DNA of 64,000 nucleotides from Jatrophihabitans sp. (lineage in GTDB: Bacteria > Actinomycetota > Actinomycetes > Mycobacteriales > Jatrophihabitantaceae): contig NZ_DASYFV010000070.1 of assembly GCF_036000465.1 (NCBI RefSeq), positions 614 to 64,613 of the forward strand, in the 5' to 3' direction. The notes under the pieces were generated by a model. That model was not told the origin of the DNA and ran no database searches. It was given only the letters and a program-made list of their open reading frames with translations. Below, piece after piece: positions 27,176 through 49,460 of this stretch; position 1 is the stretch's first letter, and every line of letters begins with the position of its first letter. The translations under genes and the position numbers were made by a program.

Positions 27176-27901
27176 TCAGCGGCGCCGCGCGTAGATCACC
27201 AGCGTCATCTGCAGCGCCTTCGGCAGGCGCGGCTCGACGGCCATGACCGTGCGGGCCACTCGCGGCCACCGCAGGAGGTACTGCTCGAGACCGACCCGGT
27301 GCAGGACCACCAGCTCGAAGTCGGCGTCGAAGAGCTCGTGCAGGCGCCGCTCGGTGTTCATCCGGTACTCGGTGGGGAACACGTCGCGTTCCTTGCGACG
27401 CGGCTGCAGCACGCGCAACCACCGGGCGTGCCGGTCGTTCGGCACGGTCCGGGCGACGGCGGACAGCGGCGAGTAGCGGCTGACCGTGCGGGCGACGAAC
27501 GCCCCACCGGGACGCAGCGTGCGCGTGAGCTCGGCGACGAAGGCCGGACCGTCCGCGACGTGTTCGAGCACGAAGTCGCTGACGCCGAGATCGACCGAGG
27601 CGTCGTCGAGCGGCCAGCGTCCGTCCTCGCCGATCGGGCGGAACTCGTCGATCAGCGGGTTCTGCTCGCCAACCGGGTCGAGGTCGATGCCGATGACCCG
27701 ACGCTGCGGGCCGCGCAGGTCGTGGAACACCTCGTCCGGCGAGTCGTCGGCCATCGACCCGCGCCCGCACCCGACGTCGACGATGGTCGTCGCCTGGGCC
27801 GCGAGCATCTGCGCGACGCCGAGGTACGGGACGATGCTGTCCCACCCCGACTTCTCCTGGTCGAAGACCTCGTTCCAGCCGAGCTGCTGAGCGGACTGCA
27901 T
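27176..27901 (-). CDS. Class I SAM-dependent methyltransferase
   Basis: VDVGCGRG, IGID, FVLEHV, RTLRPGG. Confidence 0.9.
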   Translation of the reverse strand: MQSAQQLGWNEVFDQEKSGWDSIVPYLGVAQMLAAQATTIVDVGCGRGSMADDSPDEVFHDLRGPQRRVIGIDLDPVGEQNPLIDEFRPIGEDGRWPLDDASVDLGVSDFVLEHVADGPAFVAELTRTLRPGGAFVARTVSRYSPLSAVARTVPNDRHARWLRVLQPRRKERDVFPTEYRMNTERRLHELFDADFELVVLHRVGLEQYLLRWPRVARTVMAVEPRLPKALQMTLVIYARRR

Positions 27902-27945
27902 CGCGCGGTGTTCTCCTGTCGCGGGTCGGGCCGAGGACCGTCCGG

Positions 27946-28476
27946 TCACCGAGCGTCGTCGTGAGCCTGGTTCCACTCGAAGGGCTCCATCTCGCGCAGC
28001 ACCCGTCGCCGGCGGTTGCGCGGCAGGTGGTCGATGTAGAGGACGCCTTTCAGGTGGTCGGTCTCGTGTTGCAGGCAGCGCGCGAAGTACCCCTCGCCAC
28101 TGACCTCGATCGGGTTGTTGTCCTTGTCAACGCCGCGGACCGTCGCATGGGTACGCCGGCCCAGCTCGTGATACGGACCGGGGACCGACAGGCACCCCTC
28201 GTCCTGGACGTCGAGGTCGCCGCTGGTCTCGATGCTCGGGTTGACGACGTGCCCGCGGGCCGAGGTGTCCGGGCCGGTGGGGCAGTCGTAGACGAACACG
28301 GCGAGGTCGACGCCGATCTGCGGCGCGGCCAGGCCGACGCCCTCGGCGACCGCCAGCGCGGCGAACATGTCCTCGATCAGCGTCGCGAGGTTCTGGTCGA
28401 ACTCCTCGACCGGACGCGTCGGCGTGGCGAGGACCGGATCGCCGACGACGCGGATCTTCGGGGGGAGGTCGGTCAT
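27946..28476 (-). CDS. def: Peptide deformylase
   Basis: GVGLAAPQIG, EGCLS, HETDH all intact. Confidence 0.95.
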   Translation of the reverse strand: MTDLPPKIRVVGDPVLATPTRPVEEFDQNLATLIEDMFAALAVAEGVGLAAPQIGVDLAVFVYDCPTGPDTSARGHVVNPSIETSGDLDVQDEGCLSVPGPYHELGRRTHATVRGVDKDNNPIEVSGEGYFARCLQHETDHLKGVLYIDHLPRNRRRRVLREMEPFEWNQAHDDAR

Positions 28477-28478
28477 GA

Positions 28479-29102
28479 TCAACTCCGATGGGGACGGGGG
28501 CGGCGGGGTGCCGCCCGGGCCGGCTGCGGTCGACGGCCGGCCGGCGAGGGGCGGGGGCGCTGCTCGGGCAGCAGCGACAGGACGTACAGCGTCGCGTGCA
28601 CGGTGTCGCTGACCTCCTGCGCGATCGGGCGGGTCTGCGCGACGCCGGTGCCGAACGGGTCGGCCACCTCGTCGTCGTGGCGCGGGCGCGGGCTCTCCGT
28701 CCCGCGGGCCCGCGCCGCGAGCTCGACGACCGCGCGCGGTTCGCCGGGTTCGTTCCGGCGGGCCAGCCGGGCGAACTCCTTCATCGTGAACGTGCGCCGG
28801 AAGGCGCTCGGGGCCGCCGTCATCACCGTGTCGCGGTGCCCGACCTCGGCGGTGAGGACGAGATCGGCGCCCAGCGCCATCGCGGGCTCGAACTGGCGGC
28901 CGCGATGCCGGGTCGGATCCAGGCCGAGCCGGGTCAGGATCGACGCCGACGAATGGTCGATCGGTGCCCCGACCAGGGCCGCGGTGCCCGCGCTCGTCAC
29001 GACGACATCGGCGTCCGGCGACGTCCACGATCGGAACAGCAGCTCGGCCATCGGCGACCGGCAGACGTTGCCGGTGCACACGTAGAGGACGTGGAACGGC
29101 AC
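28479..29102 (-). CDS. Low-molecular-weight protein-tyrosine phosphatase (Wzb-like)
   Basis: VCTGNVCRSPMAE, SAGT, DPF. Confidence 0.93.
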   Translation of the reverse strand: MPFHVLYVCTGNVCRSPMAELLFRSWTSPDADVVVTSAGTAALVGAPIDHSSASILTRLGLDPTRHRGRQFEPAMALGADLVLTAEVGHRDTVMTAAPSAFRRTFTMKEFARLARRNEPGEPRAVVELAARARGTESPRPRHDDEVADPFGTGVAQTRPIAQEVSDTVHATLYVLSLLPEQRPRPSPAGRRPQPARAAPRRPRPHRS

Positions 29103-29237
29103 GCCACGAGTATCGGCTACGAGCCTCCGCGGACAGCACTCGCGTCGGTGGACGGTCACATTGTCCCGTAAAGTCCGTGTTTCAGATTCCGGTGTGAACG
29201 ACCGCATCCTCCATTCTTCGTACTCGTTGGTAGGGGC

Positions 29238-30512
29238 ATGCGGTTGAACGTGCACGACTTCAGCGGCCACCCCTTCCAGGTCCAGCTGTCCCGTGAGCTC
29301 GCGGGGCGTGGTCATCACGTCCGGCACACGTACAGCACCCAGTTCGTCACCGGTCGGGGTCGGCTCGAGGTCGAGGCCGCGGACCCCGCGACGCTGCGGA
29401 TCGAGGGCGTGACGTGCCGCCGCCCGATGGTGAAGTACTCGCCCGTCGGGCGCACCCGCTTCGAGCTGGACTACGCCTCGACCTGGCGCGCCTCGTTCGA
29501 GCGCGAGCCGGCCGACGTCGTCGTGGCCTGCAACGTGCCGCTGTTCGCGCTGTCGCGGATGAAGCGGCACTTCGCCCGCACCGGTCAGCCCTGGGTGCTC
29601 TGGCACCAGGATCTCTACAGCCTCGGCGTCGGCGCCGAGGCCGCGCGGAAGCTCCCCGGCCCGCTCGCCGACCTCGCCCGCTCGGCCGTCGAACGCCTCG
29701 AGCGGGCGCAGGTGCACGCCGCGTCGAGCGTCGTGGCCATCAGCGAGGCCATGGTGCACCAGTACCACCGCTGGGGCGTCACCCGCGACGACGTGCAGGT
29801 CATCCCGAACTGGGCCCCGCTCGACGACATCACGCCGGGCGCGCGGGACAACGCCTGGGCCCGGGCGCACCACCTGCCGGAGAAGGCCGTCCGGCTGATG
29901 TACGCCGGCACGCTCGGACGCAAGCACAACGCGCTGCTGCTGCTGGACATCCTCGACGCGGCGAAGGCCCGCGGGATCGACGCGCACCTCGTCGTCGCCT
30001 CGGAGGGGGTCGGGGCCGACGACCTGGCGGCGGCTGCGGGCTCGCGCCCGGACGTGCAGATCGTCGGCTACCAGCCGGCCGCCGAGCTCTCCGACATGCT
30101 GGCCAGCGCCGATGTCGTCCTCGCCCTGCTCGAGCCGGACGCCGCCTACTTCTCGGTGCCCAGCAAGGTGCTCACCTATCTCGCCGCCGGCCGCCCCATC
30201 GCCGCGCTCGTGCCGGTCGGCAATCCGGCGGCCCAGGACGTCGCCCGGATCGGCGGCTTCGTCGGTGCCCCGACAGCGCAGGGCGCGGCCGACGCCGCCG
30301 AGTGGCTGCGTCACGCGGTCGACCGGCCGCACGGCCTCGCCACCATCGGGCAGGCGGCTCGCGACCTGGCCGAGACCCGCTTCGCGATCGCCCGGATCGG
30401 TGACTCGTTCGAGCAGGTGCTGCACACCGCGCTGGGCCGGAAGGGCTCCGGGCTGACCCCCATGCCGGCCCGGGTGGAGGACCCCACCGCCGCCGACCGA
30501 ATCGCCTCATGA
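29238..30512 (+). CDS. GT4 glycosyltransferase (WcaI-like)
   Basis: WHQDLY, VIPNWA, MYAGTLGRKH, VPSKVLTYLAAG. Confidence 0.9.
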   Translation: MRLNVHDFSGHPFQVQLSRELAGRGHHVRHTYSTQFVTGRGRLEVEAADPATLRIEGVTCRRPMVKYSPVGRTRFELDYASTWRASFEREPADVVVACNVPLFALSRMKRHFARTGQPWVLWHQDLYSLGVGAEAARKLPGPLADLARSAVERLERAQVHAASSVVAISEAMVHQYHRWGVTRDDVQVIPNWAPLDDITPGARDNAWARAHHLPEKAVRLMYAGTLGRKHNALLLLDILDAAKARGIDAHLVVASEGVGADDLAAAAGSRPDVQIVGYQPAAELSDMLASADVVLALLEPDAAYFSVPSKVLTYLAAGRPIAALVPVGNPAAQDVARIGGFVGAPTAQGAADAAEWLRHAVDRPHGLATIGQAARDLAETRFAIARIGDSFEQVLHTALGRKGSGLTPMPARVEDPTAADRIAS

Positions 30513-32080
30513 CCGGCACCCTCTTCGGTGCCGGCTCCGAGGACTACGTACTCGAGCAGGTCCCCCTCGACACGCCGACCCCGACCGCCGGCCCGCGCTC
30601 GCGCCAGGCGGGGATCGAAGCGGCTCGGCGCCGGGCGGCGACCGCGTCGCTCACCCCGCGCCCGCCCATCCGGCAGTGGACCCGCCGCTACGTGACGATG
30701 CTGGTCGTCGGCGACGTGTTGAGCGCGCTCACCGCGACCTCGATCGGGTACTCGATCCGCTTCGGCGTGCTCACCGGGCTCCCGACCCGGGGCGACCTGG
30801 TCAGCCTCCTGCTGCTCAGCCTCGTGATCACCGCGGGCTGGCTGTTCTGCCTGCAGCTGGTCGGGGCCTACGTGCTCCGCCAGGTCTCGACCGGCGCGCG
30901 CGAGGTGCAACGCGTGCTGCGGGCCGCGCTCAACCTCGCCGGCTCGTCGGCCATCGTCGCCTACTTCTCGCACATGCTGGTGGCCCGCACCTTCATCGCC
31001 ATCGTCATCCCGCTCGGGGTGGTGCTGCAGGCGCTCACCCGCTACTGCGTCCGGCGGGGCGTGAACCAGCGACGCGCCCGCGGTGAGTGGACGAGCGCGA
31101 TCCTCGCCGTCGGCACCAGCGAATCCGTGCGGCACCTCATCGACGCCACCCGGCGCAACCCGAGCGCCGGCCTCGTCGTGATCGGCGCCTGCGTCGAGGA
31201 CGTGGCCACCGCTGAAGAGGTGGCCCCCGGCGTCCCGGTGCTGGGCGATGTCGCGCACGCCGCCGCGCTGGCCGAGGAGGTCGGCGCCGATGTCGTCGCC
31301 GTCGCCGGTTCGGGGCTCGGCCCGCGCCGCATCCGTGAGCTCGGCTGGGCCCTGGAGGGCACCGGGCGCGCGATGGTCATGGCGCCGGGCCTGACCGAGG
31401 TCGCCGGTCCTCGCGTGCACGTCAGCCCGGTCGAGGGCCTGCCGCTGATGTGGGTCGACCAGCCGCAGTTCACCGGTCTCGCCCGCGTCGCCAAGCGGGC
31501 GGTCGACGTGATCGGCGCCGGCGTCATGGTGCTGCTGGTCGCCCCTCTGCTGCTGGTGGTCTGGGCGTCGGTCCGGGTGACGAGTCGCGGGCCGGGCTTC
31601 TACCGCAGCACCCGGATGGGCATCCACGGCCGCGAGATCACGGTCTGGAAGTTCCGCTCGATGTACTCCGACGCCGCCGAGCGCCGGGCCGCACTGCTCG
31701 CCGACAACGAGGTCCAGGGCGGCGTGCTGTTCAAGATGCGCCAGGACCCGCGGGTCACCCCGGTCGGGCGGTTCATCCGCAAGTTCTCGATCGACGAGCT
31801 GCCGCAGCTGCTCAACGTCCTCGGCGGGTCGATGTCGCTGGTCGGTCCGCGCCCGCCACTGCCCGACGAGGTCGAGAAGTACCACACCGACGTCCGCCGC
31901 CGGCTGCTGGTGAAACCAGGTATGACGGGTCTGTGGCAGATCAGCGGGCGCAGCGACCTGCCCTGGGACGAAGCGGTGCGCCTCGACCTCTACTACGTGG
32001 AGAACTGGTCGCTCGGGTTCGACATCGCCATCGTGCTGCGCACGGTGTGGGCGGTCCTGCGGTCGCGGGGTGCGTACTGA
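30509..32080 (+). CDS. Polyprenyl glycosylphosphotransferase (WcaJ/WbaP-type priming transferase)
   Basis: KRAVD, WKFRSM, DPRVTPVG, DELPQL, VGPRP, KPGMTGLWQ, DLYYVENWS. Confidence 0.95.
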   Translation: MTGTLFGAGSEDYVLEQVPLDTPTPTAGPRSRQAGIEAARRRAATASLTPRPPIRQWTRRYVTMLVVGDVLSALTATSIGYSIRFGVLTGLPTRGDLVSLLLLSLVITAGWLFCLQLVGAYVLRQVSTGAREVQRVLRAALNLAGSSAIVAYFSHMLVARTFIAIVIPLGVVLQALTRYCVRRGVNQRRARGEWTSAILAVGTSESVRHLIDATRRNPSAGLVVIGACVEDVATAEEVAPGVPVLGDVAHAAALAEEVGADVVAVAGSGLGPRRIRELGWALEGTGRAMVMAPGLTEVAGPRVHVSPVEGLPLMWVDQPQFTGLARVAKRAVDVIGAGVMVLLVAPLLLVVWASVRVTSRGPGFYRSTRMGIHGREITVWKFRSMYSDAAERRAALLADNEVQGGVLFKMRQDPRVTPVGRFIRKFSIDELPQLLNVLGGSMSLVGPRPPLPDEVEKYHTDVRRRLLVKPGMTGLWQISGRSDLPWDEAVRLDLYYVENWSLGFDIAIVLRTVWAVLRSRGAY

Positions 32081-32102
32081 TCGATCCGGTGCGGTGGTCG
32101 GC

Positions 32103-33176
32103 ATGAGGCTCGTCGTCGACGCCATCGCCGTGCAGCAGGGCAGCGCCGCGATCGTCGTCGGGAACGTCCTGGCCGGCTGGGTCGCCGGGTGGCCGGACGA
32201 CGAGATCGTCGTGCTCGCCGGGCGGTCGCCGGAGTTTCCGGTACCGGCGGGCGTCACGGTCGAGACCACCGAGCGCCGGCTCGACTCCACGCTCGGCCGC
32301 CTGGCCGCGCAGTCGGTCGACGTGCGCCGGGCCTGCCGACGGCTCGGCGCCGACGCCCTGCTGTCCGGCGTCACCGCCAGCGCGTTCCTGGGGGCGCCGT
32401 GCCCGCACGCGGTCATCGTCTACGACTTCCGGCACGAGCTGCGGCCCGAGCAGTTCTCGCCCGCGCGGCGCCTCGCCCGCCGGCTGCTCTACGGCTGGTC
32501 GTTCCGGCGCGCGGACGCGCTCGCCTGCATCTCCGAGCGCACCCGCCACGACCTCGTCCGGCGGCGGCCGCGGTGGGCCGAGAAGTCGTTCGCCGCCTTG
32601 CTGGGCGCCGATCACGCGGACGGCTGGCGCGGAGGCGGGTCGGCTGCCTCGCGCCGCTACGTGCTCGCGTTCGGGCACTTCGCGAACAAGAACGTCGACG
32701 GCGTGCTGCGGGCCTGGGCCGAGCACGCCGGCGGTGCCGATGATGCGGTGGTGCTGCGCATCTGCGGTCTCGGCGGCACGGCGCGGGACGCCGCCCAGGA
32801 CCTCGTCCGCACGCTCGGCATCGACGAGCGGGTCGAACTCATGCCGTGGCTCGACGACGCGGAGTTCGCCGCCCTCTTCGCCGGGGCGAGCGCGATCCTG
32901 TTCCCGTCCGACTTCGAGGGGTTCGGCCTGCCGGCGGTGGAGGCGCTCCGGCTGGGGATCCCGGTCGTCATCTCCTCCGACCCGGCACTGCTCGAGGTGA
33001 CCGGCGGCCATGCGGTCGTGGCCGCCGGGACGTCGCCCGCAGACCTCGCCGCGGCGATCGATCGCGCGCTCGCGCGGCCGGCCGAGGCCGTCGCGGCCGG
33101 CGTCGAGCACGCGCGCGCCTTCACCTGGCAGCGCACCGCCGGCGCGATCCGCTCCCGGCTCGTCGCCGGGACGTGA
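32103..33176 (+). CDS. GT4 glycosyltransferase
   Basis: FPSDFEGFGLPAVEA, FTWQRTA. Confidence 0.9.
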   Translation: MRLVVDAIAVQQGSAAIVVGNVLAGWVAGWPDDEIVVLAGRSPEFPVPAGVTVETTERRLDSTLGRLAAQSVDVRRACRRLGADALLSGVTASAFLGAPCPHAVIVYDFRHELRPEQFSPARRLARRLLYGWSFRRADALACISERTRHDLVRRRPRWAEKSFAALLGADHADGWRGGGSAASRRYVLAFGHFANKNVDGVLRAWAEHAGGADDAVVLRICGLGGTARDAAQDLVRTLGIDERVELMPWLDDAEFAALFAGASAILFPSDFEGFGLPAVEALRLGIPVVISSDPALLEVTGGHAVVAAGTSPADLAAAIDRALARPAEAVAAGVEHARAFTWQRTAGAIRSRLVAGT

Positions 33177-33185
33177 ACCGGGGCG

Positions 33186-34373
33186 TCAGCCCCACATTCC
33201 CGAGTCCTCGACGATCCGGCCGCGCAGGCGTTTCGTGACGCCGGGCAGCGCCCGCTTGACCGACTCGTACTCCTCGGGCAGCGCGCAGCGCACGCCCTTC
33301 GCGACGTCGGAGAGCATGAGTCGCGTGGCGAGCCGCCACGAGCTGCGGCGCCAGCGGGCGTACTCCGCGGCCTCGGCGGCGATGAACGGTGACGGCACGC
33401 CCTCGGGGTCGGCGAGGGCGGCCACGCGGTAGGCGTGCCGCATGCGGCGGGTGACCCGGCGACCGGTGGTGTCCATGCCGTAGCGGTACGGCGGCGGCGG
33501 CCCGACCTGGGCCTCCTTCTCGATCAGGATCGCGGCGTACTCCTTGCAGATCGCGTCGACCGCGCTGTTGTCCGCGCGCAGGTGGGCGGTGCTCGCGTCC
33601 ATCCGGGTCGAGAGCTCCTCGGGCCGGCTGGTGTCGAAGGCGTGGAAGTGGAACAGCCGCAGCCGGTCGTCGTTGGTGGCGATGTAGTAGCCGTCGGCGT
33701 CGGTCGTGATCGGCCGCTCGTGCAGGTTGGCCACGCTCACGTTGTAGCCGTAATGGCGAAGGGGGGTGGCGTCGAAGAGCACGCTGCCGACGTCGACCCA
33801 TTTCTGGTCGACGAACAACCCGGCGACCGGGTCGTGCAGGCACTCGACACTCAGGTGGCCCCACCACCAGGAGAGGAACGCGCGGGCCCGCCGATCGACC
33901 AGGCAGAAGCCGAGGTTGTACACGCCGACGGCGAGCAGGTGCCCCTCGGAGAAGTCACTGCCGGTCGGGGTCGGGTCCAGGTAGTGCGGCGTGAGCACGA
34001 TGCCCGAACCGGCGTCGAGGGCCGGTCCGAGCTCGAGCATCGGCGAGGTGACCCAGGTGTCCGGGTCGAGGTAGCCCGCCCGCGGGTGCTCGTCGAGCAA
34101 TGACATGAGGACGAGGGGTTTGACCGCCGTGGCGAACTCGACCAGGTCGTAGGACATCGCGAGGGCGAGGACGGTGCGCTCGGGCAGGTCGAGCGAGGAC
34201 GGCGTCATCCACCGGACGCCGTCGACCGGTGGCAGGTCGGTCTCGTCGGTCGCGTCGATGAGGAAGATCGTCAGCGGGATCGTGCTGCCGTGCCGGAGGA
34301 GGCTGTCGGCGAGGGTGAGGGCCTTGGGCAGGTAATTGGTCGCCAGGATCGTGCAGTACGCAGGTTCGGTCAT
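33186..34373 (-). CDS. Putative GT-A fold glycosyltransferase (unclassified)
   Basis: TILATNYL start, TAVKP, DxD motif YLDPD, YNLGF, DQKW, FHFH. Confidence 0.65.
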   Translation of the reverse strand: MTEPAYCTILATNYLPKALTLADSLLRHGSTIPLTIFLIDATDETDLPPVDGVRWMTPSSLDLPERTVLALAMSYDLVEFATAVKPLVLMSLLDEHPRAGYLDPDTWVTSPMLELGPALDAGSGIVLTPHYLDPTPTGSDFSEGHLLAVGVYNLGFCLVDRRARAFLSWWWGHLSVECLHDPVAGLFVDQKWVDVGSVLFDATPLRHYGYNVSVANLHERPITTDADGYYIATNDDRLRLFHFHAFDTSRPEELSTRMDASTAHLRADNSAVDAICKEYAAILIEKEAQVGPPPPYRYGMDTTGRRVTRRMRHAYRVAALADPEGVPSPFIAAEAAEYARWRRSSWRLATRLMLSDVAKGVRCALPEEYESVKRALPGVTKRLRGRIVEDSGMWG

Positions 34374-34547: not shown

Positions 34548-35408
34548 GTGACGACATCGGAAACTCGCACGGATTTCACGCGCGGTCTGTACCTGGACCT
34601 GCTGAAGCGAACCCTCACGGGCGCGGTCACCGAGGACAACGACTCGATCCTCGGCGGCGTGCGGACGCAGGGGTCGCCGTCGCGCAAGAAGGCGCTGGCC
34701 GACTACGTGGGGCGCGCGGCCGGCCGCTTCGGCTTCGAGCTCGCGTACAAGAAGCCGTACGACCCCTCGCTGCGTGAAGTGGGCCGCGACTGGCCGGCGC
34801 GCGCCGACTCGATGATCGGGCTGCGCCGGATGGAGAACATCCAGCACTGCGTCTCGACCGTCGTCACCGAGGAGATCCCGGGCGACCTCATCGAGACCGG
34901 CGTGTGGCGCGGCGGGGCGACGATCTTCATGCGCGGCGTGCTCAAGGCGTTCGACGACACGAGCCGCACGGTGTGGGTCGCCGACTCGTTCCAGGGGCTG
35001 CCGCCGCCGGACGCCGCCCGCTATCCCGCCGATGCCGGCGACCGCCTGCACAAGCAGACCGGCCTCGCCGTCGGCGTGGACATCGTCCGGCACAACTTCG
35101 AGCGCTACGGCCTGCTCGACGACCAGGTGAAGTTCCTGGTCGGGTGGTTCAAGGACACGCTGCCCACCGCTCCGGTCGAGAAGCTCGCGGTCATGCGCCT
35201 GGACGGCGACATGTACGAGTCGACGCAGCAGGCGATCGAGGCGCTGTACCCGAAGCTCTCCCCGGGTGGCTTCTGCATCGTCGACGACTACGGCAGCCAC
35301 GCCTCGCAGTGCGGCCGGGCGATCGACGACTACCGCGCCGCGCACGGCATCGCCGAGGAGATCGTCGACATCGACGGCTTCGGGGCCTACTGGCGCAAGT
35401 CGGCCTGA
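34548..35408 (+). CDS. TylF/MycF/NovP family sugar O-methyltransferase
   Basis: SMIGLRRM, IETGVWRGG, DSFQGLP, GWFKDTL, RLDGDMYEST, DDY. Confidence 0.95.
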   Translation: MTTSETRTDFTRGLYLDLLKRTLTGAVTEDNDSILGGVRTQGSPSRKKALADYVGRAAGRFGFELAYKKPYDPSLREVGRDWPARADSMIGLRRMENIQHCVSTVVTEEIPGDLIETGVWRGGATIFMRGVLKAFDDTSRTVWVADSFQGLPPPDAARYPADAGDRLHKQTGLAVGVDIVRHNFERYGLLDDQVKFLVGWFKDTLPTAPVEKLAVMRLDGDMYESTQQAIEALYPKLSPGGFCIVDDYGSHASQCGRAIDDYRAAHGIAEEIVDIDGFGAYWRKSA

Positions 35409-38336: not shown

Positions 38337-38588
38337 TCAGACGCGCGACGCGACCTCGTAGAACGCCAGCACGTCCCCGACCGTCTCCGGCATGTCGCCG
38401 TCGGCCGAGAAGGGGTCGGAACCGAATTCGTCCTCGAGCAGCGCGGACAGTTCGGCCGCCTCGAGCGAGTCGAGCTGCAGGCCGTCGCCGTAGAGCGGGA
38501 TGTCGTCGGTCAGCTCGGCGTGCGCCTTCCCGGCGCGCTGCAGGAACGTGGCGATGATCTGCTGGGCCTTGGTGCGATCCACGCTCAA
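38337..38588 (-). CDS. Acyl carrier protein
   Basis: 83 aa acidic protein with LQLDSLE phosphopantetheine site and ETVGD; GAGGAAGAGG RBS. Confidence 0.88.
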   Translation of the reverse strand: MSVDRTKAQQIIATFLQRAGKAHAELTDDIPLYGDGLQLDSLEAAELSALLEDEFGSDPFSADGDMPETVGDVLAFYEVASRV

Positions 38589-40925: not shown

Positions 40926-41549
40926 TCACGAACCCGAGCGGACGTTCCGCTTCGCCCGGGCGTGCTCGATGAAGGCGTCGATGTCCTGGGCGGCCAGCAG
41001 CGGCACCGCGGCGCGGACCTCGTCCTCGGGCCAGTCCCACCAGCCGATCTCGAGCAGCGCCGCTCGCTGCTCCTCCGTGTGGCGGTACCGGATGATCTTG
41101 GCCGGGGTGCCGCCGACCACGGCGAACGGCGGGACGTCCTTCGTGACCACGGCACCGGTCGCGACGACGGCACCGTGGCCGATCGTCACGCCGCTCATGA
41201 TCCAGCAGCCGTAGCCCGTCCACACGTCCGAGCCCAGGACGATGTCGCCGCGTGAGGCCGGGCTGCCGTCGGTGCCGGCGCCCTCCATCCCGAGGTTGAT
41301 CCGCATCGGGTAGGTCGTCACGTGATCGATCGCGTGCTGGCCGCCCAGCAGGTAGGTGCCGCCGATCGAGCACCAGTTGCCGACGATCAGGCGCGTCGCG
41401 TCGTGGTCGAACGTGTGAATCGTCGGCACGCCGTAGGTGCCGGTCCCGTAGGCGACGCGTCCCTGCCGCTGGAGGCGGCGGAGCACGCTCAGGTCGTTGC
41501 CCCACCATGCGTTGCGGAGCCGTCGCAGCTGGAATCCGATGGCGCTCAA
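40926..41549 (-). CDS. CatB/Vat-related O-acetyltransferase
   Basis: VTTYP, GSDVWTG, GVTIGHGAVVATGAVVTKDVPP, GGTPAK; TTGA overlap with the upstream gene. Confidence 0.9.
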   Translation of the reverse strand: MSAIGFQLRRLRNAWWGNDLSVLRRLQRQGRVAYGTGTYGVPTIHTFDHDATRLIVGNWCSIGGTYLLGGQHAIDHVTTYPMRINLGMEGAGTDGSPASRGDIVLGSDVWTGYGCWIMSGVTIGHGAVVATGAVVTKDVPPFAVVGGTPAKIIRYRHTEEQRAALLEIGWWDWPEDEVRAAVPLLAAQDIDAFIEHARAKRNVRSGS

Positions 41550-42877
41550 GCGCGTCCGTCCTCGATGGGGTCGGTGGTCGGGGGATCGCCGTCGGCGGAG
41601 AGCGCCGGCACGGCGCTCAGCGCGGCGCACAGCGCGAGAGGCACGTAGGCGAGCCGGTCGGTGAGGCTGTTCTCGAGCGACGCGAGCACGGCCCCCCCGA
41701 ACGCCGCCACGAACAGCGGCGGAGCGAGGGGATGCTCCCGCAGCAGGCGACCGCTGCGGACGAGCCCACCCACGGTGAAGATCAGCAGCCCGACCAGCAG
41801 CAGCAGCCCGCCGCTCGCCATCGCCTGGATGTAGACGTTGTGGGCCTCGGCCGCCACCTGCAGGCCCACGCCGTCGATCGGCGAGTGCTTGAAATCGCGG
41901 ATGCCCTGCGCACCGACCTCCGCGCGGACCTGGTCGCTGCCGGTCACCGACGAGTCCTCGCCGCCGAGCCGGACGGCCTTGAGGACAGCCCGGCCGAGGC
42001 CGGGCTGGGCCACGAACGCGAAGGCGGCCCCGAGGGCCAGCAGCAGGCTGACCGTCGGCAGGATCCGGCGGTACGCCGGGATCAGGACGAACGATCCGAG
42101 CGCCACGAGCACCATGATGGCCGCGCCGCCCCGCGAGCCCGACGAGTAGACGCCGACGAGCTGGGCAACCGCCAACGCGCTGCCGGTCAGCCGCTCGCGC
42201 AGCGTCGGTCGCGCCGCCAGCCACAGCGCCATCGGCAGCGCCATGACGCAGGTCGTCGCGAGGAAGTTCGGGTGCACCGTCAGGCCGGCGGACCGGTCGG
42301 TGGACACGAGGACGCCGGTGAGCGTGGTGGCCAGGTTGCTCACGCCGAGGACCTGCGCGACGGCGAGGCCGGCCGAGATCGCGCTGCCGGTCGCGAAGCC
42401 GATCATGCACCGCCGCAACGCGTTCGCGGTGTGCTGCTGGGCGAACATGAAGATGAGCGGCATCGCGACGATCGGCACGAGGAACTTGGCGCCCACTCCC
42501 AGGTTGGTCGCGATCTCGATGGTTCGCTGGCCGGCGGCGTCGACGACCACTCGCTGCGCGAGGAAGAGCGGATCGGTCGGGATGACCTCGTGGGCCACCG
42601 TCACGACGAGGATGGTCGTGCCGAAGGCCCACACCCACCCCGGCAGTCTCGGCCACGGGTTGCCGAGGTCGGTGCCGGCGAAGAGCAGGAGGGCGAGCAG
42701 CAGCAGGACGTCACCGAGCCGGAGACCACCGAACAGCCATCCGTTCCACGGCGTGGCGACGGCGGTCAGGTAGGTCGTCACGACCGCCGCTCGGGCCAAC
42801 CCGGTGTTGTGCGGTGCCGCCGGCGGCAAGGCCGGGCCGGACGGCGACCGGGGGTCGAGGATGGTCCTGCTGGTCAC
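41546..42877 (-). CDS. Wzy/O-antigen ligase family polymerase
   Basis: Multi-TM protein; HPNFL, SGSRGG, PIDGVG, HNVY. Confidence 0.85.
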   Translation of the reverse strand: MTSRTILDPRSPSGPALPPAAPHNTGLARAAVVTTYLTAVATPWNGWLFGGLRLGDVLLLLALLLFAGTDLGNPWPRLPGWVWAFGTTILVVTVAHEVIPTDPLFLAQRVVVDAAGQRTIEIATNLGVGAKFLVPIVAMPLIFMFAQQHTANALRRCMIGFATGSAISAGLAVAQVLGVSNLATTLTGVLVSTDRSAGLTVHPNFLATTCVMALPMALWLAARPTLRERLTGSALAVAQLVGVYSSGSRGGAAIMVLVALGSFVLIPAYRRILPTVSLLLALGAAFAFVAQPGLGRAVLKAVRLGGEDSSVTGSDQVRAEVGAQGIRDFKHSPIDGVGLQVAAEAHNVYIQAMASGGLLLLVGLLIFTVGGLVRSGRLLREHPLAPPLFVAAFGGAVLASLENSLTDRLAYVPLALCAALSAVPALSADGDPPTTDPIEDGRA

Positions 42878-43063: not shown

Positions 43064-43858
43064 ATGCCGAGTCTCGCCCATCGTGTCCGCCGGATCGCGC
43101 AGACCCCCCGAACCTTCACCAACTGGCCGGCCGTCCTGCGCGGGCTGGCCGATCCGCGCGCGCGTCACGAGTCCCTGTCGTTCACGACGCGGAACGGGCT
43201 GACGATCTCCTGCCCGAACGTTCCGGGCGCGCGGGTTCCGGTGTACGAGGTGTTCGCCGAGGACTGCTACCGCATCGACACCTTCCTCGCCCCGTTCCTC
43301 GGCGAGCCGATCGGCGTCGTCGACATCGGCGCGCACATCGGCGCGTTCGCCTGCCAGCTGGCGGCGAAGGCGCCCAGGGCGCGGCTGCGGTGCTTCGAGC
43401 CGTCCCCGACGACGGCCGGTTTCCTGAGGCGCAACGTGTGGACGAACAACTTCGAGGATCGGGTGGTGGTGCACGAGCTGGCCGTGGGCGCGCGCACCGG
43501 TGCCGCGGTGCTGGCCGACAACGGCGGTGGCAGCGCCCTCAACAGCATCGTGGACCCTGACTCCGGCGGCAGCGGGGTGACCGTGCGCACCACCACGTTC
43601 GACGCGATCGTCGAGGAACTCGGCGGCGTCGCCGAGGTCGTCAAGATGGACTGCGAAGGAGGCGAGTACGAACTCGTCCTCGGTTCCTCGCCGGACAGTT
43701 GGGCCGGCGTGCAGCGCATCGTGCTCGAGTACCACCCGCACCCGGACCACACCTGGCCCGAGCTGCGGGCGTGGTTCGCCGAGCAGGGCCTCGTCGTGAC
43801 CGCGGAGGAGGTCGAGAACCCGGCCCAGGGGACGGCCTGGCTCGAGCGGCGGGGCTGA
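43064..43858 (+). CDS. FkbM family methyltransferase
   Basis: VDIGAHIG, FEPSP, VKMDCEGGE, LEYH. Confidence 0.92.
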   Translation: MPSLAHRVRRIAQTPRTFTNWPAVLRGLADPRARHESLSFTTRNGLTISCPNVPGARVPVYEVFAEDCYRIDTFLAPFLGEPIGVVDIGAHIGAFACQLAAKAPRARLRCFEPSPTTAGFLRRNVWTNNFEDRVVVHELAVGARTGAAVLADNGGGSALNSIVDPDSGGSGVTVRTTTFDAIVEELGGVAEVVKMDCEGGEYELVLGSSPDSWAGVQRIVLEYHPHPDHTWPELRAWFAEQGLVVTAEEVENPAQGTAWLERRG

Positions 43859-43864
43859 CCGACC

Positions 43865-45094
43865 TTGCCCCGACTCCCGCCGGCCCTGCGACCGTTCTGG
43901 CCCTACGGGAAACGCGCCTACACCCTCGCGACCCGCGGCGTCGCCGGCGCGTCGATGCGGCTCAGCCGCCGCCGTCACGGTCACCTGCCGCTGCGCTGCG
44001 CCGACACCGTTGCCGCGGCCGCGGCCGGGGACGCCTCGGTGCGCGTGCACGTGGTCGGGCCGGCGACCTCGGTCGACCGCCCGCCGCCGGCAGGCGTGCC
44101 GCAACCGCCGCCGCCCCTGCTCCGCGAGGCGCACGCGGACTTCGCGGAGCAGGTCGTCGTCGACCTGCCGGACGGCCGCGTGCTCGGCCCGCACCGAGCG
44201 GTGATCAGCGGTGACGGCACGTTCCTGCACGGGCTCGTGCGCTACTTCGGCACGACCCGCGCGCGCGAGCACCCGATGTTCCTGCACCCGCGCGTCGACG
44301 GCCCGCAGGTGCAGGACGACGTCGTGGCCGTCCTGGCGTCGCGCGGCGACGGCAACTACTACCACTTCCTGCACGACGTGATCGCGCGGTTGTCGGTGCT
44401 CGAGCGGTGGCGCGACGCCCCGGCGATCGACCGCTACTACCTGCCGCAGACCACCCGCTTCCAGCGGGATCTCGCCGCGCTCGCCGGCATCGACGGGGAC
44501 CGCATCATCGACAGCGATGCCGCACCGCACCTGCAGGCGCGACGGCTGGTCGTCCCGGCGCTGCCCGACCTGGACCTCGGTCACCCCGCGTGGGCCACCG
44601 ACGCGCTTCGCGAGCGGCTGCTGCCGGCCGAGGTCGCGGCCGTGCCCGGTCGCTGCATCTACGTGACCCGCGGCCGGCAACGTCACAACCGCATCGTCCT
44701 CAACGAGGACGAGGTCCTCGCGGCGCTGGCGGCGTACGACGTGCAGGTGGTCGACCCGTCCGCGCTGACCGTGGCCGAGCAGATCCGCACGTTCGCCGAG
44801 GCCGAGCTGATCGTCGCGCCCCACGGGGCCGCGCTGGCCAATCTCACCTTCGCCTCAGCCGGCGCCGCGGTCGTCGAACTCTTCGCGCCCGACTTCGTCC
44901 AGGGCTGTTACTGGAAGCTCGCCGCCACCGTGCCCGGATTGTCCTACCGCTATCTCGTGGGCGAGGGGCGCACGAGTCCGCGTCGCGCGGGACTCGGTGT
45001 TTCCTCGGACATCCTTCTCGACGTTCGCTCGTTGAAGCGTGTGGTTGACGGTGTCGCCCCCGCGGCGTCATCGGACCGTCGAGCGACGTCCTAG
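43865..45094 (+). CDS. GT61/DUF563 glycosyltransferase
   Basis: NYYHFLHD, IYVTR, RIVLNEDE, EQIRTF, APHGAALANLTF. Confidence 0.9.
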   Translation: MPRLPPALRPFWPYGKRAYTLATRGVAGASMRLSRRRHGHLPLRCADTVAAAAAGDASVRVHVVGPATSVDRPPPAGVPQPPPPLLREAHADFAEQVVVDLPDGRVLGPHRAVISGDGTFLHGLVRYFGTTRAREHPMFLHPRVDGPQVQDDVVAVLASRGDGNYYHFLHDVIARLSVLERWRDAPAIDRYYLPQTTRFQRDLAALAGIDGDRIIDSDAAPHLQARRLVVPALPDLDLGHPAWATDALRERLLPAEVAAVPGRCIYVTRGRQRHNRIVLNEDEVLAALAAYDVQVVDPSALTVAEQIRTFAEAELIVAPHGAALANLTFASAGAAVVELFAPDFVQGCYWKLAATVPGLSYRYLVGEGRTSPRRAGLGVSSDILLDVRSLKRVVDGVAPAASSDRRATS

Positions 45095-45154: not shown

Positions 45155-46573
45155 GTGACTCTCCGCTCGTACCAGCGCGCTCTTCGGGAGCGTTGGCGGT
45201 TGCTGGCCCTCGTCCTGCTGCTGTCGCTCGGGCTGGCCGTGCTCATCACCGCGGCGACGCCGAAGGTCTACCAGGCCGACGCGCAGATCTTCGTCACGTC
45301 GAACGGCGACCGGGCCTCGACCGGCCAGTACGACGAGCAGGCCGCGACGCAGGCGCAGGTCACCACCTTCTCCCAGCTGGTGAACATCCCGCAGATCGTC
45401 GACGCGGTGCGGACGAACCTGAACCTGGCGCTGAGCGAGCAGCAGCTGGCGGCCAAGATCAGCGCCACCGCACCCCCGCAGCAGACGCTCGTGATCATCC
45501 ACGTCCAGGACGGCTCGCCCGACACGGCCGCCGCGATCGCGAACCAGACGGCGACGGAGTTCATCCGGGTCATCGAGGACCTCAAGCGGCCGACCGACTC
45601 GGGCAAATCGGCCGTCCGGCTGTTCGTCACGGACCGGGCGGTGGCCCCGGCGGCGCCCATCTCGCCGAACCTCACGCTGAACGTCGCCCTCGGCGTCATC
45701 CTCGGTCTCCTCTTCGGGGTCGCGCTGGCCGTGGCCCGCGACGTCCTGGACAACCGGATCAAGGAGGCCGACCAGCTCGCGGCCGCCGCGGGCGTGCCCA
45801 CGATGGGCGTGATCGTCGACGACCAGAAGGCCGCGCGTCACCCGATCGCCACGCGGGCGGGTACCCGCAACATCCGGGCCGAGAACTTCCGCCAGCTCCG
45901 GGCCAACCTGCAGTTCGCGAACGTCGACGCGCACCCCCGGGTGATCGCCGTGACCAGCTCGATCCCGACCGAGGGCAAGACGATGGTCGCGATGAACCTG
46001 GCCTCGACCCTGGCCGAGGCCGGCTTCACAGTGTGCCTCGTCGACGCAGACCTGCGCCGCCCGACGGTGGCCAAGCTGCTCGGGCTACCCAGCCCGGTCG
46101 GCCTGACGAGCGTGCTGATCCACCAGCTCGACCTCGACGAGGCCCTGCAGAGCGCGGGGTCGAACCTGTACCTGCTGAGCTCGGGACCGACACCGCCGAA
46201 CCCGAGCGAGGTGCTGGCGTCGTCCTACGTGCGGACGGTGATCCGCTCGCTGCTCGACAAGGTCGACTACGTCATCATCGACACCGCGCCGCTGCTGCCG
46301 GTGGCCGACGGCTCCGAGGTCGCCGCCCTGGCCGACGGCACGTTGCTGGTCGCCCGGCACCGGCTGACCACCGACGGGCAGGTCAAGCGCGCGAAGGAAG
46401 CCCTCACCCGGGTCGATGCGAACCTGCTCGGCGTCGTGCTCAACCGCGTCCCGGGTGGCCGCGGCAGCGAGTACGGCTACACCTACTACCGCGCCGACAC
46501 CGAGAAGTCGGCCGCGCACTCCAAGCGCACCCCGGCTCGGCTGCGCGGCAAGAAGGAAACCGTCTCCTCCTGA
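45155..46573 (+). CDS. Polysaccharide co-polymerase/BY-kinase (Wzc/CpsCD)
   Basis: Wzz-type N-terminus, Walker A SSIPTEGKT, VDADLRRP, IIDTAP, Tyr-rich tail YGYTYY. Confidence 0.95.
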   Translation: MTLRSYQRALRERWRLLALVLLLSLGLAVLITAATPKVYQADAQIFVTSNGDRASTGQYDEQAATQAQVTTFSQLVNIPQIVDAVRTNLNLALSEQQLAAKISATAPPQQTLVIIHVQDGSPDTAAAIANQTATEFIRVIEDLKRPTDSGKSAVRLFVTDRAVAPAAPISPNLTLNVALGVILGLLFGVALAVARDVLDNRIKEADQLAAAAGVPTMGVIVDDQKAARHPIATRAGTRNIRAENFRQLRANLQFANVDAHPRVIAVTSSIPTEGKTMVAMNLASTLAEAGFTVCLVDADLRRPTVAKLLGLPSPVGLTSVLIHQLDLDEALQSAGSNLYLLSSGPTPPNPSEVLASSYVRTVIRSLLDKVDYVIIDTAPLLPVADGSEVAALADGTLLVARHRLTTDGQVKRAKEALTRVDANLLGVVLNRVPGGRGSEYGYTYYRADTEKSAAHSKRTPARLRGKKETVSS

Positions 46574-46624
46574 AGGCGGTTCCCCCCGGACCGTCCTCCT
46601 CCACCCCATCCCAAAGGAACTCAC

Positions 46625-47605
46625 GTGACCTCAGTCGACGCTCTCGTCACCGGTGCCGGTGGCTTCATCGGTGGCCATCTGGTCGGCGCGTTGTTGCGGG
46701 ACGGGCTGTCCGTGCGCGCGGTCGACATCAAGCCGGTCGACTTCTGGTACCAGGAGCACCCCGACGCCGAGAACCGGCGCGGCGACGTGTCGCTGCTGGA
46801 GACGGCGTGCCGCTCCGCCGAGGGTGCCCGTGTCGTCTACAACCTGGCCGCCGACATGGGGGGCATGGGCTTCATCGAGAACAACAAGGCCGCCTGCATG
46901 CTGTCGGTCCTGACCAGCACGCACGTCCTCCAGGCCGCCCGCGACGCCGGCGCCGAGCGCTACTTCTACGCGTCCTCGGCCTGCGTCTACGCGGCCGAGC
47001 ACCAGACCTCGCCCGACGTGACCGCGCTGCGCGAGTCGCACGCGTACCCGGCGATGCCCGAGGACGGCTACGGCTGGGAGAAGCTGTTCAGCGAGAGGAT
47101 GGCGCGCCACTTCCTCGAGGACTACGGCGTGCAGACGCGCGTCGCGCGCTACCACAACGTCTACGGCGAGCACGGCACGTGGGACGGCGGGCGGGAGAAG
47201 GCCCCCGCGGCCATCTGCCGCAAGATCGCCGTCGCCGCGATCACCGGCGAGCACCGGATCGAGATCTGGGGCGACGGCGAGCAGACCCGCACCTTCATGT
47301 ACATCGACGACTGCGTGCGCGGCACCCGCATGATCACGGCTGCCGACGACCCGACCCCGGTGAACCTGGGCAGCAGCGAACTCGTCTCGATCAACCAGAT
47401 GGTCGACATCGTGGAGAAGATCGCCGGCATCACGGTCGAGCGCAGTCACGACCTGAGCGCGCCGCAGGGCGTGCGCGGGCGCAGCAGCGACAACACCGAG
47501 ATCCTGCAGCGCTACGGCTGGGAGCCGTCGACCACTCTGGTCGACGGGCTCGAGCGCACCTACCGCTGGATCCACGACGAGGTCAAGGCCTCGCTGGCGC
47601 CGTAG
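46625..47605 (+). CDS. GDP-mannose 3,5-epimerase-like SDR
   Basis: NLAADMGGMGFI, YASSACVY, YGWEK, HNVYG, GGREKAPAA.CRK: the plant GME motifs including catalytic Cys and Lys. Confidence 0.85.
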   Translation: MTSVDALVTGAGGFIGGHLVGALLRDGLSVRAVDIKPVDFWYQEHPDAENRRGDVSLLETACRSAEGARVVYNLAADMGGMGFIENNKAACMLSVLTSTHVLQAARDAGAERYFYASSACVYAAEHQTSPDVTALRESHAYPAMPEDGYGWEKLFSERMARHFLEDYGVQTRVARYHNVYGEHGTWDGGREKAPAAICRKIAVAAITGEHRIEIWGDGEQTRTFMYIDDCVRGTRMITAADDPTPVNLGSSELVSINQMVDIVEKIAGITVERSHDLSAPQGVRGRSSDNTEILQRYGWEPSTTLVDGLERTYRWIHDEVKASLAP

Positions 47606-47630
47606 GTGTCGGCCCTGAGATGAGCCCCTC

Positions 47631-49460
47631 GTGTCCTCGGCGGTGAGCAGGGCCCGCCGTGCCCTGCGCCGCCGGTGGCGGCGGCTGCGCTACGACACGC
47701 GGGCCATGCAGCTCACCCGGAACCTCGCCAAGCTCGTCCTGCTCCTGGTCGGTCTGGGCCTGGCCTGGATCGTCGTCACGGGGTTGGTCGCGAAGCGGGA
47801 TCTCGCCCGGCTCGAGGGCCGAATCGCGGCGGTCCGCAACCTGGTCGCCGAGGGCCGGATCGCCGACGCGCGGGCGGTGGCCCGGTCGGTGCCCGCGGCT
47901 GCCGCGCACATCCGTCAGCTGACCTCGGGACCGGCCTGGTGGGTCGCCGCCCATGTGCCGGTGCTGGGCTCGCCCGCCGACGTGGTCCGCGGCACGACCG
48001 TCGCCGTCGATCGGGTCGGCAGCCAGGTCGTCCCCCAACTGCTCGACGTCGCGACGGAGGTCGATCCGGCGTCGCTGCGGTCGGCGGGAGACACCGTCCG
48101 GATCGACAATCTCGTGCGCTCGCGGCCGCGGCTGACGGCGGCAGCCGCGTCCCTCGCCCGCGTCAGCGACGAGGTCGGCCGGCTCCCCTCCCGGACCTGG
48201 CTCGGCGCCGTCGACGACTACCGGGTGCGCTTCACCCAGGAGCTGCGCGCCATTCGGGGTTACGTCGACGCCGCGGCGCGGGTGGCCGACGTCCTGCCGC
48301 CGATGCTCGGCCGCGACCATCCGCAACGGGTCTTCATCGGGCTGCAGAACGAGGCCGAGGCGCGGGGCACCGGCGGCCTGCCCGGCGCCTTCGCCATCGC
48401 CACGGTGAACCACGGGGTGATCCACTTCGACCGCTTCGAGAGCGACTCCGCGCTCATGCCGCCCAACCCGCTGCAGCAGATCAGGACCGGTCTCGATTTC
48501 GGGACGCAGTACGACGCGCTGTACGGACCCTCGCTGCCGACGACGACCTTCGCCGACTCGAACGTGAGCCCGGACTTCCGCTACGCGGCGCAGATCTGGG
48601 CGGCGATGTGGCAGCGGACGACCGGGCAGCACGTCGACAGCGTGATCGCGCTCGACCCGACCGCGCTGGCCAACTTCCTGGCCGTGACCGGTCCGGTGTC
48701 GATCGGTCCGGGCCGCGGAGTCGTCAGCGCCGACAACGTCGTGGCCCTCACCCAGCGCGACAACTACGCCCTCTTCGCCGACAACCTCGCGCGCAAGAAC
48801 TACCTGGTTGCGATCCTGCGGGCCGTGGCCCACCGGGTGACCAGCGGTGTCGGGAACCCCGTGCTGCTCGTGCGCGCGGCCAGCCTGTCGGCCGAGCAGC
48901 AGCGGCTGCTCGTCTGGAACCGGGACGACGGCATCGAGGCGCGCATCCGCGAGACCGGGTTCTCGGGGGCGCTGCCGGCGGGGGCCCCGCCGTTCTCCGG
49001 CGTCATCGTGAACAACGCGGCCGCGGGCAAGCTGGACTACTACCTGCAGCGGTCGGTGACCTACGCCCGTACCGGCTGCGGGCCGACGCGCGACGTCGTC
49101 GCCACCGTCCAGCTCACCAACGACGCTCCCGCGAGCGGGCTGCCCAGCTACGTGACCGACCGGTTGGACACCCCGCCACCGGGCGCCCGGCCCGGCGACA
49201 GTCACATCATCCTCGACTACTACGCGACCGAGGGCGCCCTGCTGCAGGGCGTCACGGTCGACCGGCAGCGCGCGACCGCCGCCGTCCAGGACGTCTCGGG
49301 CTTCACCGTGGCGCGGCTGGACGTGCAGCTGCCCCGCGGCCGCACCCGGCAGATCGTGCTGCACTTCACCGAGCCGCCCGGACAGGGGCCGCCGGTCGTG
49401 TGGCGGCAACCCGGCGTCACGCCGATCTCGGTGCAGACCTTCAGCCAGGCCTGTTCGTGA
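47631..49460 (+). CDS. DUF4012 domain membrane-anchored protein
   Basis: LQNEAEARGTGG, SNVSPDF, VIALDP, GKLDYYL; N-terminal TM. Confidence 0.85.
   Translation: MSSAVSRARRALRRRWRRLRYDTRAMQLTRNLAKLVLLLVGLGLAWIVVTGLVAKRDLARLEGRIAAVRNLVAEGRIADARAVARSVPAAAAHIRQLTSGPAWWVAAHVPVLGSPADVVRGTTVAVDRVGSQVVPQLLDVATEVDPASLRSAGDTVRIDNLVRSRPRLTAAAASLARVSDEVGRLPSRTWLGAVDDYRVRFTQELRAIRGYVDAAARVADVLPPMLGRDHPQRVFIGLQNEAEARGTGGLPGAFAIATVNHGVIHFDRFESDSALMPPNPLQQIRTGLDFGTQYDALYGPSLPTTTFADSNVSPDFRYAAQIWAAMWQRTTGQHVDSVIALDPTALANFLAVTGPVSIGPGRGVVSADNVVALTQRDNYALFADNLARKNYLVAILRAVAHRVTSGVGNPVLLVRAASLSAEQQRLLVWNRDDGIEARIRETGFSGALPAGAPPFSGVIVNNAAAGKLDYYLQRSVTYARTGCGPTRDVVATVQLTNDAPASGLPSYVTDRLDTPPPGARPGDSHIILDYYATEGALLQGVTVDRQRATAAVQDVSGFTVARLDVQLPRGRTRQIVLHFTEPPGQGPPVVWRQPGVTPISVQTFSQACS

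Follow-up and report, generated by a model that had tools for sequence, protein, structure and literature searches.

What does the block of genes at positions 27176–49460 of this DNA build, and where did its parts come from? We addressed this question in a stretch of 64,000 nt from Jatrophihabitans sp. (contig NZ_DASYFV010000070.1), which we refer to as a whole as the window and from whose first letter positions are counted. A sequence-only reading had described the block as a Wzy-dependent locus for a methylated and acylated glycan with plant-type sugars. All classes of assembly machinery are present and intact, and the locus has no ABC-transporter or synthase genes; on these grounds we consider that it likely directs Wzx/Wzy-type synthesis of a heteropolysaccharide, be it capsule, slime, or wall-linked glycan. 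It is a polysaccharide locus of an ordinary type, ∼22 kb long, and is notable mainly for its assembly from two modules common to distant soil Actinomycetota.

Domain evidence was taken from Pfam, with NCBIfam and Protein Data Bank (PDB) sequence searches. The assembly genes and their companions in the locus are as follows:

30509–32080, + strand: priming polyprenyl-phosphate sugar-1-phosphate transferase, WbaP/CpsE type (Bac_transf PF02397, 218 bits against a cut-off of 27, with CoA_binding_3; three hydrophobic spans)
39615–40907, + strand: Wzx-type flippase (Polysacc_synt_3 PF13440, 33.7 bits against a cut-off of 23; 10 hydrophobic spans)
41546–42877, − strand: Wzy-like protein of the O-antigen ligase/Wzy_C superfamily (PF04932, 28.9 bits, under the cut-off of 31.7; at least seven hydrophobic spans)
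45155–46573, + strand: Wzc, a co-polymerase fused to a bacterial tyrosine kinase (Wzz, GNVR, and ParA/AAA_31 domains; two transmembrane spans; GKT P-loop)
28479–29102, − strand: low-molecular-weight phosphotyrosine phosphatase (LMW-PTP; LMWPc, 74 bits; CX5RS motif at residue 9)
27946–28482, − strand: peptide deformylase (Def; Pfam, 156 bits; GxGxAAxQ, EGC, and HExxH motifs)
27176–27901, − strand: MT1, a class I S-adenosylmethionine (SAM) methyltransferase (Methyltransf_11, 45 bits)
47631–49460, + strand: DUF4012 protein (Pfam DUF4012, 129 bits; one N-terminal transmembrane span and a large outer domain)

Each of the machinery classes that the sequence-only reading had named (priming transferase, Wzx, Wzy, Wzc, and phosphatase) was thus found, with the Wzy match falling below the Pfam threshold. 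Wzc ends in a C-terminal tyrosine cluster (SEYGYTYY), and LMW-PTP is likely its partner. Export through an ABC transporter or a synthase was considered and rejected, as such genes are absent from the locus. The def gene overlaps the phosphatase gene by 4 bp (translational coupling) within a minus-strand operon, PTP–def–MT1, of which MT1 is the last gene. The sequence-only reading had listed neither def nor the ligase, reductase, and acyl carrier protein genes described below. The genome has two def copies, the other being on contig C53, and the Def–PTP adjacency is kept in four out of five genus relatives (G001, G010, G020, G023).

The Wzy-like protein could instead act as a ligase or O-oligosaccharyltransferase: a short, heavily tailored oligosaccharide, once flipped, would be transferred to a protein, lipid, or wall acceptor, and the product would be a glycoconjugate in place of a long polymer. 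Two points against a polymerase leave room for this: the Wzy_C score itself (28.9 vs. 31.7 bits) and the breadth of PF04932, a family that also covers WaaL-type and PglL-type enzymes, that is, ligases and O-oligosaccharyltransferases. The two roles cannot be separated by sequence. Equivalently placed genes in related loci carry Wzy_C. We nevertheless regard the ligase as unlikely, given that a Wzc co-polymerase/kinase with its own phosphatase is conserved in the genus, a pairing typical of polymerizing capsule and exopolysaccharide (EPS) systems, and that no acceptor gene candidate stands out.

Is the locus peculiar to this genome? Among named sequences, Asd of the window is matched best by those of Jatrophihabitans metagenome-assembled genomes. 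In all five Jatrophihabitans relatives that we fetched, asd and the DUF4012 gene bracket a polysaccharide locus of 20–29 kb. The frame common to the genus consists of Def, PTP, the GT4 glycosyltransferase GT4a, the priming transferase, Wzy, an FkbM-family methyltransferase, a GT61 glycosyltransferase, Wzc, and a GDP-mannose 3,5-epimerase (GME), and the middle is variable. The asd–DUF4012 site is fixed in position but variable in its glycan genes, and in this it resembles a serotype locus. The frame members not listed above are the following:

29238–30512, + strand: GT4a, a GT4 glycosyltransferase (Pfam Glyco_transf_4 and Glyco_trans_1_4)
43064–43858, + strand: FkbM-family methyltransferase (Methyltransf_21, 51 bits against a cut-off of 22.7)
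43865–45094, + strand: GT61 glycosyltransferase (Glyco_transf_61 PF04577, 97.3 bits against a cut-off of 27)
46625–47605, + strand: GME (plant GME structures, E = 5e-85, ∼288 bits)

Genus relatives carry GT4a at 53%–63% identity and the FkbM gene frequently in two copies. DUF4012 orthologues, 52%–60% identical, close the locus in these relatives and make a conserved end marker; the EPS locus of Bifidobacterium longum 105-A also includes a DUF4012 gene (PMC5412050). The same genome has another DUF4012 paralogue on a different contig (G000, contig C44:129996–131735; 42% identical), and most genus relatives have at least two paralogues too, implying a second polysaccharide locus.

The surroundings of the site showed some features of their own. 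Between asd and the locus (25761–27164, + strand) lies a gene for a secreted NlpC/P60 hydrolase with three TIG/IPT domains, which none of the five genus relatives has at that place. Beyond the locus, glmS (52585–54405, + strand) is 68% identical to one of two Nocardioides halotolerans copies and 41%–45% identical to those of four other Actinomycetota, which suggests that a second, divergent kind of glmS stands beside the glycan locus. The window leuA is open, and its matches in genomes G445, G448, and G449 each have one in-frame TGA, which could stem from aligning across a frame junction or could be recurrent.

What fills the variable middle? We compared 17 related loci: 12 genome loci reached via the acyltransferase LbH1 (Nocardioides, Marmoricola, Solirubrobacterales, and Acidimicrobiaceae) and five metagenome or genome loci reached via the glycosyltransferase GTAx. 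Two sets of genes emerged. Module A consists of GTAx, TylF, LbH2, GT4b, and the GT61 gene, and recurs together in the five GTAx-sampled loci wherever their flanks reach. Module B consists of an acyl carrier protein (ACP), an AMP-forming ligase, a FabG-like reductase, a RebM-like methyltransferase, and LbH1. Apart from the GT61 gene given above, their members are:

32094–33176, + strand: GT4b, a GT4 glycosyltransferase of the "GT4-conflict" subtype (Pfam), module A
33186–34373, − strand: GTAx, a GT8-like GT-A glycosyltransferase of 395 aa (predicted fold), divergently paired with the TylF gene, module A
34548–35408, + strand: TylF-family sugar O-methyltransferase (TylF PF05711, 345 bits; PDB MycF and NovP, 264–284 bits), module A
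40926–41549, − strand: LbH2, a CatB/Vat-like left-handed beta-helix (LbH) O-acetyltransferase (NCBIfam CatB, 130 bits, under its cut-off), module A
35417–36253, + strand: RebM/MitM-like class I methyltransferase (PDB MitM, RebM [3bus], and D-glucose O-methyltransferase [6uv6], ∼121 bits), module B
36250–37593, + strand: adenylate-forming ligase (AMP-binding, 100 bits, and AMP-binding_C; divergent P-loop; C-terminal GNK), module B
37590–38333, + strand: FabG-like 3-oxoacyl-ACP reductase, a short-chain dehydrogenase/reductase (SDR; adh_short, 193 bits; NCBIfam 3-oxoacyl-ACP reductase, 239 bits), module B
38337–38588, − strand: stand-alone ACP (PP-binding, 25.7 bits against a cut-off of 20.8; LDSLE serine motif), module B
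38609/38795–39481, + strand: LbH1, a WcaF-like left-handed beta-helix acyltransferase (Hexapep; NCBIfam WcaF, E = 1e-8; start codon uncertain), module B

Module B was present in one of the five loci sampled via GTAx and in all 12 sampled via LbH1, one of which (L013) had no detectable RebM-like methyltransferase. Among GTAx-carrying loci, LbH1 and the RebM-like gene occurred only where the ACP, ligase, and reductase genes were present. The TylF gene lay within two genes of GTAx in 17 of 17 loci, and an LbH2 orthologue (56%–75% identical) was found in all five sampled through GTAx. Within the genus comparison, GTAx, TylF, LbH1, and this type of Wzx were restricted to this genome, genome G013, and a near-syntenic metagenome-assembled genome (MAG; L004); the ACP, ligase, reductase, and RebM-like set is usually present in genus loci as well. 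MT1 has orthologues 78% identical in L004 and 56% identical in G010. In three related metagenome loci (L016, L028, and L029), the first 3 kb hold a GT4 gene with a GH16 glycoside hydrolase gene on either side of it, next to Wzz and Wzy; GH16 genes of this kind are absent from the window.

The two modules have different histories. In the GTAx and TylF trees the window groups with Solirubrobacterales (support 100/99), whereas in the SDR and RebM-like methyltransferase trees it groups with Nocardioides-type loci (100/100). Pairwise identities point the same way: compared with Solirubrobacterales, module A proteins are 58%–79% identical, as against 53% for Asd and 42% for GlmS, whereas compared with Nocardioides halotolerans, Asd is 77% identical, as against 55% for GTAx, 40% for GT4b, and 41% for GT61. 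GT4b, similarly, is 63%–64% identical to its counterparts in Solirubrobacterales loci versus 38%–46% in Nocardioides-type loci. The discordant trees and the identity contrasts support modular assembly and indicate exchange between classes. The sequence-only reading had proposed modular assembly from the repeated changes of strand; the locus indeed runs in eight strand blocks with seven switches, and both gene order and strand are shuffled among the 17 related loci.

A mosaic history of this kind might also describe a silent or decaying recombination product that makes nothing. Genes were called by scoring GC at the third codon position (GC3), as the window is 72% G+C; a plain list of open reading frames (105 in the region) was rejected as a gene map because spurious frames dominate it. 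By the GC3 calls, 21 genes fill 27176–49460, with spacings of −4 to 206 bp and the two ends set by the first and last stop codons. All 21 are full length relative to their homologues, their GC3 bias is strong, and several are translationally coupled; together with the occupied site in five out of five relatives, this makes a silent locus very improbable. Base composition across the window gave no island signal, and a search for repeats and insertion sequence elements over 25–51 kb returned short chance-level matches only; nothing pointed to a mobile element as the carrier of the modules. An Rfam scan found no RNA element within the locus. Elsewhere in the window it located a signal recognition particle RNA (8040–8136, + strand) and two tRNA genes (7894–7978, − strand; 54800–54873, − strand), the first two of these three features lying just upstream of dnaX; all three are routine housekeeping genes.

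Could the central block (33.2–39.5 kb; GTAx, TylF, RebM-like, ligase, SDR, ACP, and LbH1) make a separate small metabolite or glycolipid? The closest relatives of known structure, both for TylF and for the RebM-like enzyme, tailor antibiotic sugars, and ligase/ACP pairs are typical of secondary metabolism. A natural-product cluster was nonetheless rejected, as there is no scaffold gene (polyketide synthase, nonribosomal peptide synthetase, or other). Moreover, the block always accompanies Wzx, Wzy, Wzz, GT61, and GT4 genes in the 17 related loci, and GTAx-like domains are fused to GT4 domains, a family common in polysaccharide loci. We consider a separate product quite unlikely and keep to a single polysaccharide locus.

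One member of module A, GTAx, belongs to a family that has no Pfam model. The sequence-only reading had listed a GT-A enzyme next to two GT4 enzymes and a GT61; Pfam bore out the latter three, and the GT-A is this 395-aa protein, whose model folds like GT8 enzymes. It has no Pfam match even at E ≤ 10 and no NCBIfam match, and its sequence does not place it in GT8/PF01501. An AlphaFold model built from 27 sequences (pLDDT 79, pTM 0.81) was compared with known structures by Foldseek, which put LARGE1, glycogenin, UGGT, and GlyE on top (E = 1e-6, probability 1.0, TM-scores 0.3–0.6). Residues D103-P-D105 (DPD) and H242/H244 (His-x-His) are invariant in the 27-sequence alignment. The model thus predicts a GT-A fold with a DxD-type metal site, GT8-like yet outside GT8 by sequence. 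GTAx resembles retaining GT-A enzymes of GT8 (glycogenin, the LARGE1 xylosyltransferase domain, and GlyE) in its predicted fold, its DxD-like DPD, and its C-terminal His motif; it differs from them in the missing Pfam match, TM-scores of just 0.3–0.6, and an extra helical C-terminal region of ∼130 residues.

The family is large. We found at least 2638 homologues, none of them named and many 64%–76% identical, the close ones coming from soil metagenomes and from MAGs labelled Pseudonocardiales or Solirubrobacterales. A profile search returned 7082 clusters (50% identity), of which 2629 had E ≤ 1e-30. Among 400 sampled Actinomycetota genomes there were no close orthologues and 15 distant ones, suggesting that the close family is rare among species representatives, though common in soil metagenomes. 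Seven out of eight distant relatives tested have the domain fused to GT4 domains (six of the "GT4-conflict" subtype), and five of these also end in a class I methyltransferase domain. Such fusions support the idea that the three activities, encoded by separate neighboring genes both here and in related loci, work together. The giant GTAx/GT4/methyltransferase fusions (P0256, P0266, P0272, P0281, and P0283; 1082–1621 aa) resemble single-chain glycan polymerase or terminator enzymes.

Module B raises the question of what acyl group might be attached. The ligase gave its best PDB matches to aryl-acid ligases (4-chlorobenzoate and o-succinylbenzoate CoA ligases) at 61–69 bits, which do not indicate its acid substrate; it scored 90 bits against TIGR03098, far under the cut-off, and has a divergent P-loop and no informative solved relative. 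A PDB search with LbH1 also gave no informative match. The ACP gene lies 0.05–1.8 kb from LbH1 in all 12 loci found through LbH1 and in L027, and LbH1 is absent from the four GTAx loci without an ACP module. Since the RebM-like methyltransferase occurs only in loci with the ACP module, it may act on the acyl group and not on a sugar.

Possible analogues of the module are the tetronate genes of Vibrio cholerae O1 (rfbK–O) and the exosortase-A-linked ligase/ACP pair. In the literature available to our search, there was no precedent involving an ACP-linked 3-hydroxybutanoyl or tetronate group. Flagellar glycosylation islands of Aeromonas contain a trio of ACP, 3-oxoacyl-ACP reductase, and AMP-synthetase, with no chemistry assigned (PMC7874193). 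The group II islands have the same three stand-alone functions within a glycan locus as we see here; LuxC and LuxE accompany them there, and the glycans concerned are those of flagellin, based on pseudaminic acid (PMC7874193). In the present locus, which is of Wzy type, their companions are a RebM-like methyltransferase and an LbH acyltransferase.

Which sugars might the polymer contain? The donor enzyme encoded within the locus is the predicted GME. A published set of criteria (PMC8787198) consists of an S/Y/K triad, a Cys–Lys acid/base pair, a Cys-acidifying Arg, and the equivalents of N203 and R243; these eight residues separate GDP-mannose 3,5-epimerase from GDP-fucose synthase and GalE. 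Aligned to 2c59, the window enzyme conserves eight out of eight (equivalents of S143, C145, Y174, K178, N203, K217, R243, and R306), and its product would be GDP-L-galactose or GDP-L-gulose. All signature residues are common to the Arabidopsis GME, the Methylacidiphilum GM35E (PMC6678494), and the window enzyme; the latter, a predicted epimerase, differs in a shorter N-terminus and an actinobacterial polysaccharide-locus setting. GME was found in 16 of 31 genus genomes.

Other candidate donor enzymes are encoded in the window ahead of the locus:

22266–23258, + strand: UDP-xylose synthase (UXS; human UXS1, E = 5e-119, 400 bits over residues 15–324, full length; next family 148 bits)
16508–17491, + strand: Gmd (TIGR01472, 396 bits, cut-off 415)
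17497–18450, + strand: Gmd paralogue, 48% identical and 5 bp away (TIGR01472, 276 bits, cut-off 415)

UXS was found in 14 of the 31 genus genomes and adjoins asd wherever it could be placed; Ugd is on another contig of the same genome. Both Gmd copies keep the S-x-E and YxxxK motifs, and the paralogue scores 261 bits to Gmd structures versus 119 to Rmd; the second copy could possibly be a 4-reductase. UXS and the Gmd pair may be linked to this polymer. The stretch between the pair and UXS (18541–22237, + strand) holds four genes, whose products are an aldehyde dehydrogenase, a protein of 84 aa with a biotinyl/lipoyl carrier domain, a class III aminotransferase, and a protein of 187 aa; they might supply the glycan with, for instance, an amino or acid substituent.

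The sequence-only reading had taken a GME-like epimerase, UXS, and two Gmd copies as parts of the window. All were detected, with UXS and the Gmd pair lying outside the locus and the second Gmd being a paralogue below the equivalog cut-off. Likewise, the proposal of a methylated, acylated, Wzy-type glycan stands in its core by gene content, but "plant-type sugars" goes too far, because a bacterial GDP-mannose 3,5-epimerase has already been characterized (PMC6678494, PMC8787198) and GT61 is recurrent in related bacterial loci. GT61 (old name DUF563) recurred across the related bacterial loci that we sampled; its PDB matches were POMGNT2 and EOGT only. The four methyltransferases (class I, TylF, RebM-like, and FkbM) and the two LbH acyltransferases, one WcaF-like and the other CatB/Vat-like, hold up by their Pfam, NCBIfam, or PDB matches.

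How might these parts work together? From the gene content and catalytic motifs we infer the substrates, the order of steps, and the acyl chemistry as follows. The priming transferase would load a sugar-1-phosphate onto polyprenyl phosphate, and GT4a, GT4b, GTAx, and GT61 would extend it to a repeat unit of at most five sugars. The GME within the locus probably supplies one donor, GDP-L-galactose or GDP-L-gulose; further donors could be UDP-xylose (from UXS) and a GDP-6-deoxyhexose (from the Gmd pair). The TylF-type, FkbM-type, and class I methyltransferases would O-methylate the glycan and LbH2 would O-acetylate it. Since SAM, acetyl-CoA, and acyl-ACP are found in the cytoplasm, methylation and acylation would take place there. 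In module B, the AMP-ligase would charge the dedicated ACP with a small carboxylic (keto) acid, the FabG-like reductase would reduce the keto group, the RebM-like enzyme may add a methyl group to the acyl moiety or to the sugar that carries it, and LbH1 would move the ACP-borne acyl group to the glycan. Wzx would then flip the unit and the Wzy-like protein polymerize it, with Wzc and the phosphatase setting chain length and output and the DUF4012 protein as a probable accessory.

Besides the Wzy_C score, several observations weigh against parts of this account. UXS and the Gmd pair lie 4–10 kb outside the locus, beyond the housekeeping genes ask–asd. LbH1 resembles WcaF enzymes, which use acetyl-CoA, so that acyl-ACP is no more than a proposed donor; in genus relatives, the ACP module adjoins a different LbH protein, or none that we could detect. 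As for the history of the locus, the module trees are small and unrooted and fix neither the direction nor the timing of exchange.

Among described systems, the locus compares best with Gram-positive Wzx/Wzy capsule and EPS loci such as that of B. longum 105-A (PMC5412050), which also has a priming transferase, several glycosyltransferases, a flippase, a polymerase, a Wzz/tyrosine-kinase regulator, and DUF4012. As in B. longum-type loci, the chromosomal site is fixed and the content varies between relatives. The Jatrophihabitans locus has far more tailoring than the B. longum one (four methyltransferases, two LbH proteins, and the ACP acyl module) and adds GME, GT61, and a Pfam-less GT-A family.

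A broader joint reading is possible, and we hold it only tentatively. The locus may represent a recurrent, undescribed glycan type of soil Actinomycetota, with a core triad of GT4, GT8-like glycosyltransferase, and methyltransferase (separate genes here, fused giants in relatives), O-methylated L-galactose or xylose, an optional ACP-delivered hydroxy- or methoxy-acyl ester, and gene exchange between Actinomycetes, Thermoleophilia, and Acidimicrobiia. If this were true, GTAx would be the founding member of a new family of glycosyltransferases, and LbH1 would acylate sugars with acyl-ACP as its donor.

Jatrophihabitans and its neighbors are abundant soil actinobacteria that have barely been cultured, and to our knowledge their surface glycans are not known; a literature search returned nothing on Jatrophihabitans polysaccharides. 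The locus family supplies gene candidates for O-methyl sugars and L-galactose in actinobacterial polymers, and candidates also for a large Pfam-less glycosyltransferase family and for ACP-dependent acylation of polysaccharides. What it adds is modest (a Pfam-less GT-A family, an ACP-linked acyl module, and a demonstrably mosaic origin), and the current view of polysaccharide synthesis stands. Within that view, the locus is a clear case of a polysaccharide locus built from modules of different donors.

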